From positions 480,001 through 512,000 of the forward strand of contig LT962688.1 in assembly GCA_900234795.1 (NCBI GenBank): DNA of 32,000 nt, read 5' to 3'. The notes under the pieces are model-generated. The model did no database searches and was not told where the DNA came from. It saw only the letters and a program-made list of their open reading frames with translations. Made by a program: the position numbers and the translations under genes. This document shows positions 7-21,517 of the stretch, one piece after another (the first letter of the stretch is position 1; each line of letters opens with the position of its first letter). This DNA comes from Methylorubrum extorquens. GTDB lineage: Bacteria > Pseudomonadota > Alphaproteobacteria > Rhizobiales > Beijerinckiaceae.

Positions 7-930
7 TCATAGGAAGCCTTTGCCGGCGTGGTTCTTGAAGGCCTTCGCCCGGCGGTCGTAGGCCTTGAGGGTCTTCACTTCGCGATGCCGGGTCACATCC
101 ATGACCTTCAGCAGGTCGGCGCCCGCCTCGAGCGCGGAGGTGACGAAGCCGGCGCGCAGCGAGTGTCCGGAGAACAGGGCCGGGTCGAGCTTCGCGGCCT
201 CGGCGTAGCGCTTGACGATGTTGGCGACGGTCCGGTCGGTCAGGTCGAAGACGCGGCCTTCCTTGATGCCGGCGGCGGCGATCCAGTCCTCGACCGCCTC
301 GACCGGCTTCAGCTTTCCGCCACGGGGAATCGCGACGATGTGGCCCTCGCCCTCCTGGTCCGTCTTCGACCGGCGGATATGGACGAAAAGCCCGTCGGGC
401 GTGCGCTCCAGGTCGGCGACCGTGAGGCCGACGATTTCGGACCGGCGGAGCGCTGCGGCGAAACCGAGCAGGAGCACCGCGCGATCCCGCTTGCCGGTCA
501 GCGTCTCGGGCACCTTCTTCAGCATGGCGCCGATCGCGCGGGCCGTGGCCGGTGCCTTGCGCTCGACGGCGACGCCGAGCCGACGCTTGATGCCCCGGAG
601 CACCGCCTTCACGGCCTCCGCGTTGGTCGGCGGCTCGTGCCCGGCGATACGGTGCATGTAGCCGATAGCGGCAGCCCGCCGGACGATCGTGGAGGCCTTC
701 AGCCCGCGGTCGGCGAGGCTGGCGAGGTAGGCCGCGACCGTGGCGGCCGAGGCCGGCGCGACGACCTGGTCGAGCCCCGCAGCCCAGCCGGCGAAATCGC
801 TCCAGTCCGAGGCGTAGGCCCGCCGCGTCGCATCGCTTTTTTCAGCGAGCGCGTACTGCGCGGCCGAGGCCAGATGATCTTGGAAGACAACGACTTCCGC
901 CGGTGCGACCGGCACCGGCAGAGTGGTCAT
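7..930 (-). CDS. Tyrosine site-specific recombinase, Cre/XerC-like
   Basis: 307-aa ORF. The C-terminal catalytic region is GHSLRAGFVTSALEAGADLLKVMDVTRHREVKTLKAYDRR (HxxR...H...Y). The N-terminal core-binding region (TRRAYASDWSDFAGW; VAAYLASLADRGLKASTI) follows the Cre-type pattern. The antisense ORF 28..978 is judged an artefact. Confidence 0.85.
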   Translation of the reverse strand: MTTLPVPVAPAEVVVFQDHLASAAQYALAEKSDATRRAYASDWSDFAGWAAGLDQVVAPASAATVAAYLASLADRGLKASTIVRRAAAIGYMHRIAGHEPPTNAEAVKAVLRGIKRRLGVAVERKAPATARAIGAMLKKVPETLTGKRDRAVLLLGFAAALRRSEIVGLTVADLERTPDGLFVHIRRSKTDQEGEGHIVAIPRGGKLKPVEAVEDWIAAAGIKEGRVFDLTDRTVANIVKRYAEAAKLDPALFSGHSLRAGFVTSALEAGADLLKVMDVTRHREVKTLKAYDRRAKAFKNHAGKGFL

Positions 931-7887: not shown

Positions 7888-8502
7888 CTACTCCGCCGCC
7901 ATCGGCAGCACTGCGGGTTCGGGCTCGTCGACGAAGTCCTCCCAGGACAAGCGCCCGAGCGTCGTCGGGCCTCGATGTGAGCGATCCCAGACGAACCACG
8001 CGAAGGCCGTCATGCTGGTGGCCTTGGGGCCGTCCCAGCCGTCGCGGTGCATCATCGGCAGCCGCTTCCGGAAGACGTGGACGCGGGCCAGCGTGCCGGT
8101 GTCGAGCAGCGAGCCGCGCGTGATCCCCTCGTAGAAGGCGAGCCGCAGCAGCATCATCACGCGCGGGCAAAGCTCGACGGCTTTCTCGGCGAAGGCGCGG
8201 GCGTGCTTGTAGGGGGGATTCGTGACGATGCAGTCGACCCCGAACGGGGCGCCGTGCAGCTTCAGGAAGTCCATCTCCGCGACCTGACCGGGGCAGCCGT
8301 AGGAGACGAGATCGGTCGGCACCACTTCGTGGCCGGCCGCGCACAGCTCACGCACGATCGCGCCCGGTCCGCAGGCCGGCTCCCAGATCCGCTGCGGCAG
8401 CCATTCGGTCGCGAGCAGCGCCCGCACGGCGACGGCCGGCGTCTCGTACAGGTCGTTTCCGCGCTCGGCGTGCGGATGAGCCTTGTTCTCGCGGTAGCTC
8501 AT
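7888..8502 (-). CDS. Orphan DNA N6-adenine methyltransferase (phage type)
   Basis: The AdoMet motif I-like EPACGPGAI is followed by the catalytic motif IV TNPPY. No adjacent restriction endonuclease. ATGA overlap with rusA. Confidence 0.8.
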   Translation of the reverse strand: MSYRENKAHPHAERGNDLYETPAVAVRALLATEWLPQRIWEPACGPGAIVRELCAAGHEVVPTDLVSYGCPGQVAEMDFLKLHGAPFGVDCIVTNPPYKHARAFAEKAVELCPRVMMLLRLAFYEGITRGSLLDTGTLARVHVFRKRLPMMHRDGWDGPKATSMTAFAWFVWDRSHRGPTTLGRLSWEDFVDEPEPAVLPMAAE

Positions 8503-8966
8503 GCCGCCTCCAGCGCGCCCGAGCGCGGCCAGATCGGGGAGACGGATTCGAGCAGGAAGCCCGGCGGCACGGCGCGCACGGTCGCCGCCAGTTCGGCGTG
8601 CTCGCGGTGCCAGTCGAGCACCACCCGCCGCGCCTTCCGGTCGTTGTCGATGACGCCGTGCGCCTGGAGGAGATCGCTGGTCGCCTTCGACAGGTTGTCG
8701 AGGTCGGCCTTCGTCTCTGTCTCGGGGACGGCGAGCAGCAGGATATACGCGCCCGGCACACGGCCGGGACGCTGTTCGAGCAGGCGCCAGCCCGCATCCC
8801 TGATCCAGGCCGAGTAAGCCTTGGAGCGCACCGGCCGGCCCGGCGCGTGGTCGTGCAGGTCGTTGGCCGACGGCGGGATCGGCAGCAGGATCGTCACCTC
8901 GTCCACGACGCGGCGGACCGCGGCCGAGGACGGGACGATTCGGGGGGAGGGCGAGCGGCGGGCCAT
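8499..8966 (-). CDS. rusA: RusA family crossover junction endodeoxyribonuclease
   Basis: LLPIPPSANDL and ADLDNLSKATSDLLQAHGVIDND match the RusA signatures (LPxPPSxN; DLDNLxKAxxDAL...DD). Confidence 0.85.
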   Translation of the reverse strand: MARRSPSPRIVPSSAAVRRVVDEVTILLPIPPSANDLHDHAPGRPVRSKAYSAWIRDAGWRLLEQRPGRVPGAYILLLAVPETETKADLDNLSKATSDLLQAHGVIDNDRKARRVVLDWHREHAELAATVRAVPPGFLLESVSPIWPRSGALEAA

Positions 8967-8969
8967 GGT

Positions 8970-9488
8970 TCAGCCCCGCGCCGCGATCGCGTCTTCGATA
9001 TCGACCTGCGCACCAGCCGAGCGGATCTGCTTCGCGGCCTCGCGCATCACGGTGCTGGCGTTGGCGCCGATGGTGACGGTGACGCCCTCCATGCCGGCGA
9101 AGGCGCGGGAGACCTTGTCCCCGACCTGCTGGCGCAGGCTCCGCTCGCTGCCGCCGCGGTTCCGGCCTGTCTCCCGTTCGATCGCAGCCTGCCCGAGCGG
9201 CGTGTCCGCCAGCATGCCGAGCGCCTGCATGTAGAGTTCGAGGATCGCCTCCTCTTCCATGCGCTCGTCGTAATCGCGCTTGCGCATGGCGATGATCTTG
9301 CGAATGACCTTCGTGTCGAAGCCGTTCGCCTTGGCTTCCGCATAGACGTCCTTGACGTCACCCGCGATGCCGGCCTTCTCTTCTTCGAGCCGTTCAATAC
9401 GCTCGATGATGGTTTTCAGTTGATCGGCCGCGACCGAGGATGGATCGACTTGCGAGGCAGGCGCACTTCTGGCATTCATTTGGCTCAC
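8970..9488 (-). CDS. DUF2312/GapR-like DNA-binding protein with about 85-aa C-terminal extension
   Basis: [71 protein letters not shown] aligns by eye with Caulobacter GapR ([61 protein letters not shown]). Confidence 0.85.
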
Positions 9489-9550: not shown

Positions 9551-9871
9551 TCAGGGGTGGGGACGGCCCGGCGGCAGACCGTTGCCGTTGCGCGGGCGCG
9601 TGGGATCGCCGCCGAGGGCCGGACGCCGCGGCACGCGCGGCTCGTCGATCGCGGGCAGGTCCGTCGCCGGCAGAGCCGTCGCAGCACCGGCCCGCAGCCG
9701 CTCTTCCGCCTGCGTCAGGCCGAGGAGCGCATAGCGCCGGCACTGCACGAGGCTCCTCGCCGCCGGTGACACGTCCCCGCGCAGCAGGTCGTTCCGGCGC
9801 ACGATCTCGTCGCGCACCGTGTCGATCACGTCCGCGAGGCCGGCGTCGCTCAGATCGGCGAGGGCGCTCAT
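9551..9871 (-). CDS. Hypothetical protein (106 aa)
   Basis: The internal ATG at 9871 lies 3 nt after the stop of 9874..10170. The N-terminal half is ordinary (MSALADLSDAGLADVIDTVRDEIVRRNDLL). The longer ORF-track version 9551..10207 overlaps the neighbouring gene and is rejected. Confidence 0.5.
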   Translation of the reverse strand: MSALADLSDAGLADVIDTVRDEIVRRNDLLRGDVSPAARSLVQCRRYALLGLTQAEERLRAGAATALPATDLPAIDEPRVPRRPALGGDPTRPRNGNGLPPGRPHP

Positions 9872-9873
9872 GG

Positions 9874-10170
9874 TCAGGCGACCCGGCCGAGATCGTCGTG
9901 GGCGCGGTCGCCCTGCACGTCCCCAGGCAGGCTGGCGCGGCCGGGCTGGAAGACCGACCGGTTCAGCGCCATGAAGCCCTGCTCGATGGCGGTGCGGCCG
10001 ATGGAGAACCAGCGCGGATCGACGGTGCCCGCCGGCATCGCGGCGAGCTTGTCGAGCTGACGAAGCACCTGCTCCTCCAGCGCCTTGTTCTCGTTGACGA
10101 GGGCGACCTTCTCCTCGCTCTGCGGCTTGTAGCCGGCGACCGGGAGGCCCTGGTGCTGCTGGTTCGACAT
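9874..10170 (-). CDS. Acb2/Tad1-hairpin-like small protein (candidate cyclic-nucleotide sponge)
   Basis: 98 aa. The pattern GYKPQSEEKVALVNENKALEEQVLRQLD...DPRWFSIGRTAIEQGFMALNRSVFQP matches my recollection of the family signature (GY..(Q/L)S......N..K..EE.....D...RW..I.R...E.GFM..NR..F.P). Confidence 0.6.
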   Translation of the reverse strand: MSNQQHQGLPVAGYKPQSEEKVALVNENKALEEQVLRQLDKLAAMPAGTVDPRWFSIGRTAIEQGFMALNRSVFQPGRASLPGDVQGDRAHDDLGRVA

Positions 10171-10222: not shown

Positions 10223-10807
10223 TCAGGCGGCGGGGACGATCATCCAGTCGTCGGCGAGCATGTCCGTCTGCGACGCGAGCCAGCCCATCAGGATCTCGCC
10301 CGTGGCCGTCTTCATCGTGATGCAGGGGAGCACGACAGCGCTGCCGCCGTTGGACAGGGCGAAGGCCTCGTTGTGCGGCGACCAGAACTTGTCGGCATCG
10401 ACCCGGCGCCCGCCGAGCACGCCGCTCAGCGCGAGCCACATCGCCTTGCCGTTCCAGCCCGTGCGGGCCACGCGATGCCCGGCCTTCAGGGCAGCCAGAG
10501 CGTCGCCGAAGGACATCGCCGAGGACTTCGAGACCGCCGCATAGCCCGCCTCGAACACGTCGCGCGGCGAGTGGGAGAGGTAGCCGTCGGGCTCGCTCTC
10601 CGTCGGCGCGTACCGCACCAGCATGTCGCCTTCGCTCACGGCGCCGGGGCGACGCAGGAAGCCGGCCGGGACCGGAACGACGATGTAGCCGTGCTCCGGA
10701 TGGTGCACGCCCACCTTGCCCGAGCCGTCGGCCTGGAACTCGGCCGCGCCGATCGGATAGGCCTCCACCTGCTTGTGGCTGACGTGGGTCGGGTTGAAGG
10801 GGGACAT
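10223..10807 (-). CDS. DUF2829 (Tad2-type) domain protein with unknown ~95-aa N-terminal domain
   Basis: The C-terminus MSFGDALAALKAGHRVARTGWNGKAMWLAL...ITMKTATGEILMGWLASQTDMLADDWMIV matches the DUF2829 hallmark (A...L..GK.v.R.GWNGKgm...; WlASQtDmLAeDW). The start is chosen at the ATG at 10807, preceded by AAGGAGAG. Confidence 0.75.
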   Translation of the reverse strand: MSPFNPTHVSHKQVEAYPIGAAEFQADGSGKVGVHHPEHGYIVVPVPAGFLRRPGAVSEGDMLVRYAPTESEPDGYLSHSPRDVFEAGYAAVSKSSAMSFGDALAALKAGHRVARTGWNGKAMWLALSGVLGGRRVDADKFWSPHNEAFALSNGGSAVVLPCITMKTATGEILMGWLASQTDMLADDWMIVPAA

Positions 10808-10827: not shown

Positions 10828-11283
10828 CTACGGCCGCGGCTCCATCGCCCCGAACAGGGGCAGGTCGGTCAGGTCGGAGGCAGCCGGCCGCCGCGAGCGG
10901 CGAGCAGCCGATCCCAGAAGCGGCGGCGCCACGTCCGCACCCGGTTCCACAGCGGCGCACTCCGCCGCGCGAAGAAGAGCCTCACCCGCGCGAACAGCAG
11001 CGTGGTCAGACCCGGCAGCGGCGGCGGTGAGCAGGACTTCATCGGCGAGCTTCCTGAGTTGACGCTCGCGCTCGGCGGCGTGGATGGCTTCGAGCCGGGA
11101 GAGGACGTGAGACGCGATTTCCTTCGGGGGCCGGTATTTCAGCGCCCAAAGCTTGGAGAAGGGGACGCGGGCCCGAGTAGCGACCCGGCGCATTGCGTTG
11201 CCGGCATCGCCCCAACCTGTCGCTTCCCAGCGGATCAAGTCGTCGGCCCAGGTCTGGGCCCGTGAAACGTCAGCGCTAGACAT
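10828..11283 (-). CDS. Hypothetical protein (151 aa)
   Basis: The start is chosen at the ATG at 11283 (MSSADVSRAQTWADDLIRWEATGW...). It overlaps the stop of the upstream ORF (AATGTCTAG). Confidence 0.5.
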   Translation of the reverse strand: MSSADVSRAQTWADDLIRWEATGWGDAGNAMRRVATRARVPFSKLWALKYRPPKEIASHVLSRLEAIHAAERERQLRKLADEVLLTAAAAGSDHAAVRAGEALLRAAECAAVEPGADVAPPLLGSAARRSRRPAASDLTDLPLFGAMEPRP

Positions 11284-12647: not shown

Positions 12648-13292
12648 ATGCCCCGTAAAGCGGCCCCACCGGATCTGAGCACGCAAGGCGGCCGCCTCAT
12701 GGCCGCTCGCCTTGACGCGGGCATATCGACCCGGCCGGAGGCGGCCGAGATGTTCGACCTGCCGAAGTCGACATACGAGTCGCACGAAACCGGGCTCCGG
12801 GGCGGCGCCCGCGGCATCCCGATTGAGAACGCGCGGCGGTACGCGCGGCGCTTCGGTGTGTCGTTGAGCTGGCTGCTGACTGGCCAGGGCCCGCGCAATG
12901 CCAGCGAGGCAATCGAGATCCGGGGCTATATCGGCGCAGGTGCCGAAATCGAGGACCAGGACGGCGCGTCCCGCTTCGAGGAAATCGGCATTGAAGTCGC
13001 CGACCAGGATGCGTTCGAGTGGTACGAGGTTCGAGGTGACTCGATGCAGCCGCGTGTCTATCCGGGCGAATTAATTGCTTTCGAGCGCCGGGAATACGAG
13101 CCGGCGCAACTGCTGCGGCAGGAATGCTTAGTTCTTCTTGAGGATGGCCGGCGCTTCTTCAAGAAGTTGAACCCTGGAAGCGCGCCGGGTTATTTCGACC
13201 TAATCTCCTACAACGACGCGGACCGCCCCGACGAGCGGGTCATCAGCGTGGGAAAGGTCGCGATGATCGTCTCCAGGCCTAGAAAGGCATAG
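12648..13292 (+). CDS. CI/LexA-type phage repressor (XRE HTH + S24 peptidase domain)
   Basis: The HTH is AEMFDLPKSTYESHETGLRGGARGIPIENARRYARRFGVSLSWLLTG. The S24 catalytic Ser is in VRGDSMQP and the catalytic Lys in RRFFKKL. Confidence 0.9.
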   Translation: MPRKAAPPDLSTQGGRLMAARLDAGISTRPEAAEMFDLPKSTYESHETGLRGGARGIPIENARRYARRFGVSLSWLLTGQGPRNASEAIEIRGYIGAGAEIEDQDGASRFEEIGIEVADQDAFEWYEVRGDSMQPRVYPGELIAFERREYEPAQLLRQECLVLLEDGRRFFKKLNPGSAPGYFDLISYNDADRPDERVISVGKVAMIVSRPRKA

Positions 13293-18766: not shown

Positions 18767-19064
18767 CGCCCGCGCCTCGGCTCCGGCCCAGGAGCCATCC
18801 TGCCTGTATCCCGACGAGGCCGAACTCGCGCGAGTCGTGCTCGGCCCAAAGCGGGCGAAGGCGTGGGGCGGTCTCGCTGCCGTCCTCGAGCGCAGCGGCC
18901 TCCCGAAGGTCGATCCGATGATGGGCGGTCGCTACTGGCCCGCCGTCCGAGAATTTCTGGACCGCTATCACCATACCGGCGACCATGCCTCCACCCGGCA
19001 CCAGGGCCGGAGGGAGGAGGGTGTCCATGCCAGCGGAGCACGAGTTGCACGCGCCCGGTCTTAA
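18759..19064 (+). CDS. Hypothetical protein in the excisionase position upstream of int
   Basis: High GC3. LYPDEAELARVVLGPKRAKAWGGLAAVLERSGLPKVDPMMGGRYWPAVREFLDRYH. The function is not established from sequence. Confidence 0.4.
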   Translation: MGSARASAPAQEPSCLYPDEAELARVVLGPKRAKAWGGLAAVLERSGLPKVDPMMGGRYWPAVREFLDRYHHTGDHASTRHQGRREEGVHASGARVARARS

Positions 19065-20229
19065 ACGGATGAAGCGCCACAACGGGCGCGTCGATCTCTA
19101 TTGGGTGGCCGACGAGAAGCTCGTCGCCAAGGGGTTCACGCCAAAGACGGTTCGCCTGTTCGGAGACTGGCCCTCGCAGGAGATCGCCTCGCGCTGCGCG
19201 ATCCTGCAGGCCGAGATGTTGGAGTGGGCCGCCGGCCGCGAGCCAGGCCGGAACGCGTTCGCCCTCGGCACCATCGGCTGGATCTGTCGCGCCTTCGAGA
19301 CCGACCCCGATTCGCCGATCCATGAGCGCCGGCGAGACACCCGCGTCTTCTACGGCAAATATATCCGCCACCTGGTGGTGGCCGCCGGTGACGAGCACAT
19401 GGCCGACATCATCGGCCGCGACGTGCGCCGGTGGCACCGGACTTGGACGGACGAGATCGGCGAGCGCGGCGCCTACGCCTGCATCCAGACGCTCCGCCGG
19501 GTCGTGAATTATGGGTGCGAGCTTCGAGACCGCGACGCGATCGAACTGGCCCCTGTGCTGACGAAGACGACGTTCCGGCAGCCGCGCGCCCGCAAGCTCC
19601 GCCCGAGTCACGAGATGATCGTCGCTCTGCGCACCGCCGCCCACGATGCCGGCCGGCCGAGCATCGCGCTCGCGGTAACGCTTCAGTTCGAACTCGGGCT
19701 TCGGCAGAAGGACGTGATTGGCGAGTGGGACCGACCGGACGCCGAGGCGCGCAGCCGAATCGCCGGGGCCATCACGGACGGCGCATGGGTCTGGGATTGG
19801 GGCCTCATCTGGAACCACATCGACGGGACGATCCTGCGCAAGCCGACGTCGAAGTCGAACGGCAACGAGGTCGCAGAGCACGATCTCAGCCATTACCCCG
19901 AGTTGCTCGCCGAGCTGCCGCCACGCGGCGTCGGTCCGCTGGTCATCGATGAGCGGTCCGGCCTGCCGTGGAAGCGCTCGCACTTCAGTCGGACGTTCCG
20001 CGAGATCGCCAGGGCCTCCGGATGGCCCGATGGCATCTGGAACATGGACAGCAGGGCAGGGGCGGTCAGCGAGGCCTTCGAGGCGGGCGCGGCGCCGGCC
20101 GACGTGATGCGCACCGCGACCCACACTCAGATGTCGACGACGATGCTCTATAACCGGGGATCGGTGGTGCAGTCGGGTCGCGTGGCCGAGCTACGAACGG
20201 CGCGGCGGAAGGCGAAGCCTGCGGGCTGA
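19027..20229 (+). CDS. int: Phage tyrosine integrase
   Basis: Catalytic signatures LGLRQKDV (Arg), SRAGAVSEAFEAGAAPADVMRTATHTQMSTTMLY (R...H...Y). The start is chosen at the ATG at 19027, 6 nt after GGAGGAGG; the ORF-track start 18985 is possible. It is adjacent to tRNA-Asn. Confidence 0.9.
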   Translation: MPAEHELHAPGLKRMKRHNGRVDLYWVADEKLVAKGFTPKTVRLFGDWPSQEIASRCAILQAEMLEWAAGREPGRNAFALGTIGWICRAFETDPDSPIHERRRDTRVFYGKYIRHLVVAAGDEHMADIIGRDVRRWHRTWTDEIGERGAYACIQTLRRVVNYGCELRDRDAIELAPVLTKTTFRQPRARKLRPSHEMIVALRTAAHDAGRPSIALAVTLQFELGLRQKDVIGEWDRPDAEARSRIAGAITDGAWVWDWGLIWNHIDGTILRKPTSKSNGNEVAEHDLSHYPELLAELPPRGVGPLVIDERSGLPWKRSHFSRTFREIARASGWPDGIWNMDSRAGAVSEAFEAGAAPADVMRTATHTQMSTTMLYNRGSVVQSGRVAELRTARRKAKPAG

Positions 20230-20306: not shown

Positions 20307-20382
20307 TGGCTCCCCGAGCAGGACTCGAACCTGCGACAAAGCGATTAACAGTCGCTTGCTCTACCAACTGAGCTATCGGGGA
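20307..20382 (-). tRNA. tRNA-Asn (anticodon GTT), CCA encoded
   Basis: The reverse complement folds by hand into a cloverleaf: TCCCCGA-TA-GCTC-AGTTGGTA-GAGC-A-AGCGA-CTGTTAA-TCGCT-TTGTC-GCAGG-TTCGAGT-CCTGC-TCGGGGA-G-CCA. Confidence 0.95.
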
Positions 20383-20625
20383 TCACCGGTCCGCCTCAGC
20401 GGCGGTGGCGGGTCATTAGCCTTCGCCGGTTTCGGACGCAAGGGTCCTATCACCGCTTTTTGCGCCTTCTGAGCCGACGACGCACTTTTTTCACCGGGTC
20501 GCGGTGCGGCGGCGGCGTTTGTGTCGATCGAGCGACAAGACCGTTGCCGAGCGGGTCAAGCGTCTGCTAGAGACGCCTCGCTCCGGACCGGCCGCTCGGC
20601 CCGGAGTGTCGCGCATTCGCGACGA

Positions 20626-20699
20626 GGCCTCGTGGCGGAGTGGTTACGCAGAGGACTGCAAATCCTTGCACCCCGGTTCGATTCCGGGCGAGGCCTCCA
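20626..20699 (+). tRNA. tRNA-Cys (anticodon GCA), CCA encoded
   Basis: GGCCTCG-TG-GCGG-AGTGGTTA-CGC-A-GAGGA-CTGCAAA-TCCTT-GCAC-CCCGG-TTCGATT-CCGGG-CGAGGCC-T-CCA. Confidence 0.95.
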
Positions 20700-20866
20700 A
20701 ACTTTTCGATACCCCTGACAATCTGCTCGTTTCTGGCCATGCAAGGCGCTCGTGCGAGCCTTGCAATTCCGGGAACGATCCACGACAACCCGACCCGCTC
20801 GGGCCGGCGCCGCTCGACGGGCGGGCGGGGAAACGGTCTGGCGCGGCGGCGAGGGATGGACGGCTC

Positions 20867-21517
20867 ATGCTCGATTATGCTCAGGCGCGGCGCCTCATGG
20901 TCGATTGTCAGCTCCGGACCTTCGATGTGAACGACGTCGCGGTGCTCGATGCCTTCGACACCGTACCCCGCGAGCGCTTCGTCCCGCCGGGCCGCGAGGA
21001 CTTCGCCTATATCGATCAGACGCTGACCTTCGATACGGGCGCGGACGGGATTCGCGCGATGCCGGCCCCGATGCTGCTGGCGCGCCTGATTCAGGCGCTC
21101 AAGATTCGTCCGGGCACCCGCGCCCTCGATGTCGGCACCGGCTACGGCTACGGCGCGGCCATGCTTCGGCAGCTCGGCGCCGAGGTCGTTGCCCTGGAAT
21201 CCGACCCGGATCTCATCGGCGCCGCCCGCGAGCGCCTCGGCGACACCGTCGACCTCGTCCAGGGCGCCTTGACCGCTCCGGCCAAGGGCGGGCCTTTCGA
21301 CGCCATCCTCGTCGAGGGACGAGTCGAGGCCCGGCCGCAGGCCCTGCTCGATCAGTTGCGCGACGACGGGCGCTTGGTCTGCGTGCTCGGTCCGCACCGC
21401 AACGCCAAGGCGACCCTGTTCGTGCGGGCGGGCGATGCCTTCGGGGCACGCCCGCTCTTCGATGCCTCGCTGCCGGCCCTGAAGAGCTTCGCGACCGAAC
21501 CCGGCTTCGCGTTCTGA
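20867..21517 (+). CDS. pcm: Protein-L-isoaspartate O-methyltransferase
   Basis: MLDYAQARRLMVDCQLRTFDVND...ALDVGTGYGYGAAML (AdoMet motif)...FDAILVEG. The start is at the ATG at 20867, because the ORF-track N-terminal extension runs through tRNA-Cys. Confidence 0.85.
   Translation: MLDYAQARRLMVDCQLRTFDVNDVAVLDAFDTVPRERFVPPGREDFAYIDQTLTFDTGADGIRAMPAPMLLARLIQALKIRPGTRALDVGTGYGYGAAMLRQLGAEVVALESDPDLIGAARERLGDTVDLVQGALTAPAKGGPFDAILVEGRVEARPQALLDQLRDDGRLVCVLGPHRNAKATLFVRAGDAFGARPLFDASLPALKSFATEPGFAF

Follow-up and report, generated by a model that had tools for sequence, protein, structure and literature searches.

A Tad2-type sponge domain joined to a widespread, unnamed N-terminal domain in a Methylorubrum extorquens prophage

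What does a phage protein gain when a Tad2-type signal sponge is joined to a second domain that domain databases do not cover? The question is raised by a gene in a 32,000-nucleotide stretch of Methylorubrum extorquens DNA (contig LT962688.1, positions 480,001 to 512,000; hereafter the window), in which an open reading frame (ORF) on the reverse strand at 10223..10807, stop codon included, translates to a protein of 194 residues. An earlier reading of the letters alone, here called the original prediction, had quoted this same translation and had described the protein as a DUF2829 (Tad2-type) sponge domain preceded by a domain that it could not assign. We find the protein to be an ordinary member of a widespread, half-characterised architecture. 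Its Tad2 half is well understood and sponge fusions are an established theme, whereas the N-terminal domain (N-domain), predicted to be a barrel resembling the oligonucleotide/oligosaccharide-binding (OB) fold, is the less established part: its family is very large and has no name, a single preprint has noticed it in part, and it is found consistently in association with domains that bind signals. For the locus as a whole, the explanation that we favour, and hold to be probable, is a modular anti-defence protein made of a Tad2 sponge and an autonomous N-terminal module, carried in an exchanged anti-signalling island.

The gene and its Tad2 half

In the C-terminal half, residues 98-191 match PF11195 (Tad2-like, formerly DUF2829) with an E-value of 1e-23 and 84.1 bits, against a gathering cut-off of 25, and cover the profile entirely (1-73 of 73). 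A phmmer search of PDB sequences returned HgmTad2/AcrIIA7 (8kbi, E = 1e-15), SptTad2, SPO1 Tad2 and ModTad2, over an E range of 1e-15 to 5e-9 and in every case aligned to residues from about 95 to 191. The AlphaFold2 (AF2) model of this half has the N-terminal helix and the antiparallel sheet with inserted loops of the Tad2 fold, at a predicted local distance difference test score (pLDDT) above 90, and Foldseek aligns it with 8wjd, 8kbj, 9eib, 8smf and 8v3e (E = 6e-8 to 1e-4), the target-normalised template modelling (TM) scores to solved Tad2 structures being 0.67-0.88. The assignment of this half to the Tad2-type sponges in the original prediction is thus fully confirmed, as solidly as sequence and a predicted fold allow, and these matches, together with the pocket motifs described below, place the domain at residues 98-194 (10226..10516, reverse strand).

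The residues of HgmTad2 that contact the Thoeris signal glycocyclic ADP-ribose (gcADPR) are W21, N22, G23, M76, W87, L88, S90, T92 and D93 (Li et al., 10.1101/2023.11.15.567273). All nine are identical in the Methylorubrum protein in a pairwise alignment, and its gcADPR-pocket motifs read GWNG (117-120) and GWLASQTD (175-182). The full Pfam profile, the fold (TM 0.75-0.88) and these two motifs are shared with SPO1 Tad2, HgmTad2, SptTad2 and ModTad2, and a long insertion of about 35 residues, placed after the second strand and before the last ones, is a further likeness to HgmTad2 and SptTad2. At other positions of the HgmTad2 alignment, A78 is replaced by T and V84 by L. Membership of the subgroup that binds cyclic dinucleotides (the HgmTad2/SptTad2 type) was examined at residues R31, S47, F70 and N85, of which S47 and F70 fall in an unalignable region, and the remaining two depart from the subgroup, R31 being changed to S and N85 to M. 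Because family membership is strong and the pocket residues are conserved, we infer that the Tad2 domain most likely forms the usual homotetramer and sequesters the Thoeris signals (gcADPR isomers) made by Toll/interleukin-1 receptor (TIR) proteins, which would block activation of the effector ThsA. The characterised Tad2 proteins are single-domain and about 90-105 residues long, whereas the sponge discussed here is preceded by an extra domain of 96 residues.

The original prediction had also considered that the true start might be an internal codon that removes this extra domain, and such a start finds no support in the evidence. The upstream gene stops at 10828, leaving 20 nucleotides to the ATG at 10807; AAGGAGAGAGC, directly 5' of this ATG, is a good ribosome-binding site, with AAGGAGAG as the Shine-Dalgarno sequence. 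The Tad2 domain begins with an internal methionine, Met98, but CGGTCTCGAAGTCCTCGGCG, which precedes it, contains no Shine-Dalgarno sequence, and there is accordingly no sign that the Tad2 domain is also made on its own. Thousands of clusters conserve the N-domain at the protein level. Contrary to what the original prediction had implied, the fusion is not rare, since the same two-domain architecture is found in phrog_872, which matches residues 6-191 (E = 3e-35), in gp49 of Escherichia phage N4 and in most close homologues.

A full-length AF2 model built on 89 homologues has a mean pLDDT of 91.9 and a predicted TM score (pTM) of 0.59, with a drop in pLDDT to about 72 at residues 91-100. A pTM of this size combined with high pLDDT and a dip at the linker suggests two rigid domains on a flexible tether, with no fixed interface between them in the model. 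The inter-domain linker (about residues 89-97; 10517..10542, reverse strand) is the site of this dip and also a breakpoint in related prophages, as discussed below. The PADLOC and NCBIfam libraries contain no match for the protein.

The N-terminal domain and its relatives

The N-domain (residues 1-96; 10520..10807, reverse strand) was also modelled alone, giving a pLDDT of 92.7 and a pTM of 0.82. The AF2 model has five strands (13-24, 30-36, 40-46, 62-66 and 77-80) and a short helix (82-88), an arrangement that resembles the OB fold of the phage L protein Dec. No Pfam family matches residues 1-96 even at E <= 10, and none does in NCBIfam or PADLOC, in agreement with the original prediction that this half is separate and without a family. 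The Foldseek comparison, which returned the Tad2 fold for the C-terminal half, points to an OB-like barrel here: the PDB matches are weak OB folds (best E = 0.016) with Dec in the top two, alongside the anticodon-binding domain of lysyl-tRNA synthetase, exonuclease VII, RecO and SSB, and the BFVD matches are only uncharacterised phage proteins and one MazG fusion. When the N-domain profile was run against the PDB with hmmsearch, a single solved structure was matched, phage L Dec (6e3c, E = 8.5e-4), and hhalign scored the pair at 95.2% (E = 3e-8) over about 70 residues, a significant profile similarity that is accompanied by the same strand order. However, Dec is a structural protein that binds capsids and carries a trimer spike at its C-terminus; the SxSP motif characteristic of the N-domain family is missing from it, and it has no link to anti-defence.

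Profile alignment by hhalign places the N-domain in one family with the N-terminal domains of RyR Tad (gp68 residues 4-69; 97.9%, E = 3e-13) and of N4 gp49 (98.4%, E = 6e-15), and across very distant members the residues K12, Y66, G75-Y76, S78, S80-P81, F85 and Y89 are conserved. RyR Tad is gp68 of Pectobacterium phage vB_PatP_CB1, whose C-terminal ryanodine receptor (RyR)-like domain sequesters gcADPR, as reported in a June 2026 preprint (10.64898/2026.06.04.730250). The same preprint reported that gp68 residues 1-86 alone have no activity against type I Thoeris, that the crystallised N-domain is a domain-swapped dimer in which beta1 completes the five-stranded sheet of the partner, that both domains mediate dimerisation, and that the C-terminal domain works without the N-domain. 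RyR Tad therefore resembles the Methylorubrum protein in its homologous N-domain and in the layout of N-domain, linker and gcADPR-binding domain; however, in place of Tad2 it has an all-helical sponge of the RyR Repeat12-like type at its C-terminus, and RyR Tad is a dimer. The authors of that preprint list Tad3 in the same hot spots, yet describe the N-domain fold as one of unknown function.

The second relative, N4 gp49 (ABK54417.1, 160 residues; EF056009.1 34003-34485, equivalent to 1477-1959 of our extracted locus L002), combines an N-domain at residues 8-79 with a Tad2-like domain at 83-159 (PF11195, E = 8e-24). It differs from the Methylorubrum protein in that its N-domain is the short form of about 70 residues, without the long beta2-beta3 excursion, and in that it comes from a lytic N4-like phage, where it occupies the hot spot beside the virion RNA polymerase. 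A functional study of the N-domain of N4 gp49 was not found in the literature, and gp49 offers a tractable model for the architecture. As a point of nomenclature, PF13876, the Acb4 sponge family (10.1101/2024.12.30.630793), is named after 'N4 Gp49', whereas gp49 of EF056009.1 is a Tad2-type protein.

Other small phage families were compared with the N-domain and rejected. Sequestin (PF21825) gives no match at E <= 10 and is alpha-helical with 60-80 residues, whereas the N-domain is beta-rich; hhalign against LockinA-C and their homologues gives 0.05%; and TadIV-1 is helical, corresponds to T4 vs.3 and is restricted to Straboviridae. Lockin is moreover reported to be absent from INPHARED, whereas a tblastn search with the short-type N-domain found 125 sequenced phages in that collection, N4 among them. 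A second type of N-terminal extension is seen on ten Tad2 homologues (P0034-P0038, P0047, P0056, P0087, P0088 and P0103), with the motif MG-x-[FY]TKKPVT[VI]EA ... GDWI[IL] ... YPCKPDVFEATY, the order of which is similar to that of the N-domain; judged by this motif order, the second type may belong to the same OB-like superfamily as a remote branch.

How common is the N-domain, and to what is it joined? Nearly all of the 120 best homologues of the Methylorubrum protein have an N-terminal extension of 45-130 residues, in which the shared motif is K-x-V-x-A ... G-[DY]-[YML]-LV-x-Y ... G-Y-x-S-x-S-P-x-x-x-F-x-x-x-Y. An exhaustive search of 1.84 billion cluster representatives with a profile of 42 N-domains gave 8,194 matches at E <= 1e-3 and 4,070 at E <= 1e-10. 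From the best 150, 147 were classified, the omitted ones being P0124 and two proteins already among the close homologues. The survey that the original prediction had proposed, of whether the N-domain occurs alone or fused, shows that it does both: it is N-terminal with an extension of 35-231 residues in 88 of the 147 proteins and stand-alone in 34, and it is C-terminal in 12, in tandem in nine and internal in four. Pfam recognises a partner in 29 of the 147, namely Sequestin (PF21825) in ten, the Acb2/Tad1 hairpin (PF24729) in nine, Tad2 in five, Acb4 (PF13876) in four and RyR in one; no Pfam family covers the N-domain itself in any of the 147. Fusions of the N-domain to a MazG pyrophosphatase were also found (phrog_37613; BFVD A0A384WK77).

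The extensions beyond these recognised partners are very diverse. Among the proteins P0123-P0270, 80 extensions of at least 40 residues, N- or C-terminal, have no match to known-sponge seeds, and the largest cluster among them has three members; small recurrent groups are P0233/P0257/P0270 and P0157/P0230/P0240. Going by sequence, such unmatched extensions are candidates for further uncharacterised anti-defence domains.

In IMG/VR viral contigs, more than 450 N-domain matches were confirmed. The 80 loci retrieved hold mostly stand-alone genes, a set that is biased towards such genes by having been found with an alignment of stand-alone members. On these contigs, known sponges account for only three of the 119 immediate neighbours of stand-alone N-domain genes (two Acb4, one Acb2/Tad1), which indicates that the stand-alone genes are not merely split fusions. 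The N-domain is thus a useful lead, being abundant, present in the model phage N4 and not covered by domain databases.

Domain exchange and the role of the N-terminal domain

Related prophages pair nearly the same N-domain with other partners. In the homologue P0033, an N-domain 99% identical to that in the window is followed by an Acb4 domain (PF13876, E = 2e-26). The contig that encodes it (L001) shares 94% identity with the window between 11736 and 10532, a position at about residue 92 in the linker, where the two part and L001 continues into Acb4; homology returns at 9911..9859. Another contig (L004) follows the window at 84% identity as far as 10542 and is homologous again from 9917; in this contig and in L005, a third, unassigned domain (phrog_26726), helical-looking in L004, follows the N-domain in place of Tad2. 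Two M. rhodesianum loci (L006 and L007) keep the fusion of N-domain and Tad2 but carry, between breaks near 10164 and 9883, a stand-alone Acb4 gene in place of the Acb2 gene of the window. The conserved downstream boundary of the cassette (9859..9917, reverse strand) consists of the C-terminal tail ...DRAHDDLGRVA, which is common to all variants and ends P0033, P0042, P0051 and P0053, and of the start of the next conserved gene.

On the evidence of these alignments, the locus is an anti-signalling hot spot in which recombination exchanges sponge domains both at the borders of genes and, which is more unusual, inside the gene at the domain linker, and it provides a clean example of prophages reshuffling sponge domains by recombination within a gene. 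The window and L001 differ at only three of 276 nucleotides, too few for a comparison of synonymous with non-synonymous changes to be informative. That a near-identical N-domain is paired with either Tad2 or Acb4 suggests that the two halves are independent beads on a string rather than the walls of a joint pocket.

We propose that the N-domain is a separate, Dec-like OB-fold module on a flexible linker, that, judging from its homologue in RyR Tad, it probably forms a dimer by exchange of the first beta-strand, and that it most likely adds a second, autonomous activity, more than a scaffold. This activity would be the binding of a different small molecule or of a protein of the phage-host conflict, and a second ligand pocket within the N-domain is possible. 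The suggestion in the original prediction that the fusion adds a second function is in this respect probable, whereas nothing points to its alternative of an enzymatic role, the domain being a small OB-like barrel with no match to a catalytic family. An autonomous function is proposed because stand-alone and tandem forms are abundant, because known sponges are so few among the neighbours of the stand-alone genes, and because the N-domain is paired with Tad2 in one prophage and Acb4 in another; the same three lines of sequence evidence argue against a mere clamp and against a pocket shared between the domains. Together with the adjacent Acb2-like gene, the fusion gene would form a small anti-signalling island, with cargo that recombination exchanges at the linker of the two domains and at conserved borders between genes.

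Fusions between two sponges are known, e.g., Acb4-Tad2 in Pasteurella phage Pm86, Sequestin-Tad2, and Acb4-Sequestin in phage Ab09. The Methylorubrum protein is like them in joining a known sponge to a second small phage domain, with partners that are swapped among sponge families; however, both halves of those fusions are proven sponges, whereas the N-domain is neither Sequestin, Lockin nor Acb4. Sequestin itself was identified as a sponge from its fusion to both Tad2 and Acb4 (Tal et al., 10.1101/2025.07.12.664507), and the fusion spectrum of the N-domain mirrors, by analogy, the one that exposed Sequestin.

Among the possible roles of the N-domain, an autonomous second activity is therefore ranked highest, followed by a dimerisation scaffold, a new nucleotide sponge, and the binding of a capsid or structural protein. 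As a scaffold, the N-domain would be only a dimerisation or assembly clamp that stabilises or cross-links sponge oligomers with interface pockets, without itself binding a ligand or target. Such a clamp would fit the beta1-swapped dimer of RyR Tad and its lack of anti-Thoeris I activity when alone, and a dimeric add-on is geometrically compatible with the known partners, all of which are even-numbered oligomers (Sequestin dimers, Tad2 and Acb4 tetramers, Acb2/Tad1 hexamers). However, we consider it unlikely, since roughly one in four of the sampled representatives is stand-alone and some are tandem, and a mere clamp would have no reason to occur by itself; the stand-alone genes in IMG/VR rarely adjoin a known sponge, the C-terminal domain of gp68 needs no N-domain to work, and polar and aromatic residues of the N-domain are conserved across very distant members. 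Less likely again is a new family of nucleotide-signal sponges, beside Tad1, Tad2, Acb2, Acb4, Sequestin, Lockin and TadIV-1, which would make the protein a fusion of two sponges. The Sequestin-like fusion pattern would suit this reading, as would a domain that is short, phage-restricted, often stand-alone and probably homo-oligomeric, that has the classic oligonucleotide-binding fold with conserved basic and aromatic residues, and that, lacking a Pfam model, could not have been seen by the Pfam-based fusion screen of Tal et al. On the other hand, gp68 residues 1-86 are inactive against type I Thoeris, the N-domain is net acidic in the Methylorubrum protein, and no such sponge was reported by a structure-guided screen that covered about 65,000 clusters of short phage proteins (10.1101/2025.07.12.664507).

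The resemblance to Dec raises the further reading that the N-domain has kept the ability to bind capsids and binds a phage structural protein, masking a defence trigger or localising the sponge. The profile and Foldseek matches to Dec point in this direction, as do a weak Pfam match to PF22758 (E = 0.034), a family of phage cement proteins, and the finding that the N-terminal part of Dec, an opened OB fold, is the part that contacts the capsid (PMC6449081). This reading, which is built on homology of fold and sequence, is nevertheless improbable: the gene lies in an early operon beside a repressor and not among structural genes, the SxSP motif of the family is absent from Dec, and no trimerisation spike follows the N-domain. 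We regard as very improbable indeed that the whole protein is an AcrIIA7-like anti-CRISPR or a type I toxin ('MW1434 family'), as database names of DUF2829 proteins would have it. The best PDB sequence match bears the deposition title 'Inhibitor of Type II CRISPR-Cas system / AcrIIA7', NCBI gives the name 'MW1434 family type I TA system toxin' to the M. rhodesianum homologue (88% identity), and one phage homologue is annotated 'anti-CRISPR protein'. However, AcrIIA7 is HgmTad2, which was shown to be a sponge for gcADPR and cyclic dinucleotides (10.1101/2023.11.15.567273), the discoverers of Tad2 have argued for an anti-Thoeris and against an anti-CRISPR role of DUF2829 proteins, the NCBIfam search found no model for the protein, and its context is an anti-signalling island. 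The names 'toxin' and 'anti-CRISPR' look like carried-over DUF2829 labels rather than functional evidence.

The modular, autonomous reading that we favour has its own difficulties. The gp68 domain that is inactive against type I Thoeris contributes to dimerisation, which fits a pure scaffold as well as a second activity. The partner census was drawn from the best-scoring 150 representatives and is not a random sample, and some of the 8,194 profile matches are spurious repeat proteins, e.g., P0124. In the Tad2 half, the changes at R31 and N85 mean that a ligand range broader than gcADPR cannot be assumed.

Should the N-domain have a target of its own, it would add a major family to the anti-signalling repertoire of phages and provide a search handle for new partner families. 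A broader claim, that the N-domain defines a very large family (at least 4,000 clusters) of autonomous phage counter-defence modules, acting as sponges or as binders of phage or host proteins, the latter a role inherited from capsid-decoration OB folds, is a tentative one, which we consider quite possible and yet short of probable. If it were true, the many unannotated fusion partners would amount to a catalogue of undiscovered sponge or inhibitor domains.

The prophage early operon

The fusion gene appears to be part of the early operon of a temperate phage that sits at a tRNA-Asn gene in a Methylobacterium/Methylorubrum-like chromosome. The gene immediately downstream of it (9874..10170, reverse strand) has its own GAGGAG Shine-Dalgarno sequence and encodes an Acb2-like sponge of 98 residues, which matches the Acb2/Tad1 hairpin family PF24729 (E = 8e-19, 68 bits against a cut-off of 27); its closest solved chains are Acb2 p26 (8h2j, 8ixz; E about 5e-5) and, weakly, T4 Vs.4. 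When the DNA of the locus was compared with GenBank phages, only this Acb2-like gene was matched (in the alphaproteobacterial phages RcapMu and those of Rhizobium and Caulobacter), suggesting that no close phage has been sequenced. The closest genomic relatives are Methylorubrum rhodesianum (88%), whose homologue P0005 is 88% identical to the fusion protein, and other Methylobacterium and Methylorubrum species.

Further along the reverse strand lie genes for a GapR-like DNA-binding protein (8970..9488; PF10073, E = 4e-34), a RusA-like resolvase that is weakly assigned (8499..8966) and a methyltransferase with an NPPY motif (7888..8502), and a second tyrosine recombinase, XerC/D-like, is found at 7..930. 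On the forward strand, a divergent CI-like repressor of the S24/helix-turn-helix type is encoded at 12648..13292, and the integrase (18985..20229; phrog_1) adjoins the tRNA-Asn gene (20307..20382, reverse strand). To the right of the tRNA-Asn gene are genes for valyl-tRNA synthetase, a TolC-like protein, a DegP-like protease and a PCMT-like methyltransferase. This succession of integrase, tRNA-Asn and housekeeping genes indicates a prophage integrated at tRNA-Asn, with its right end at this point and the fusion gene in its early operon. Beyond that end, a tRNA-Cys gene (20626..20699, forward strand) lies inside the listed ORF 20504..21517, so that the PCMT-like gene must in fact start further downstream.

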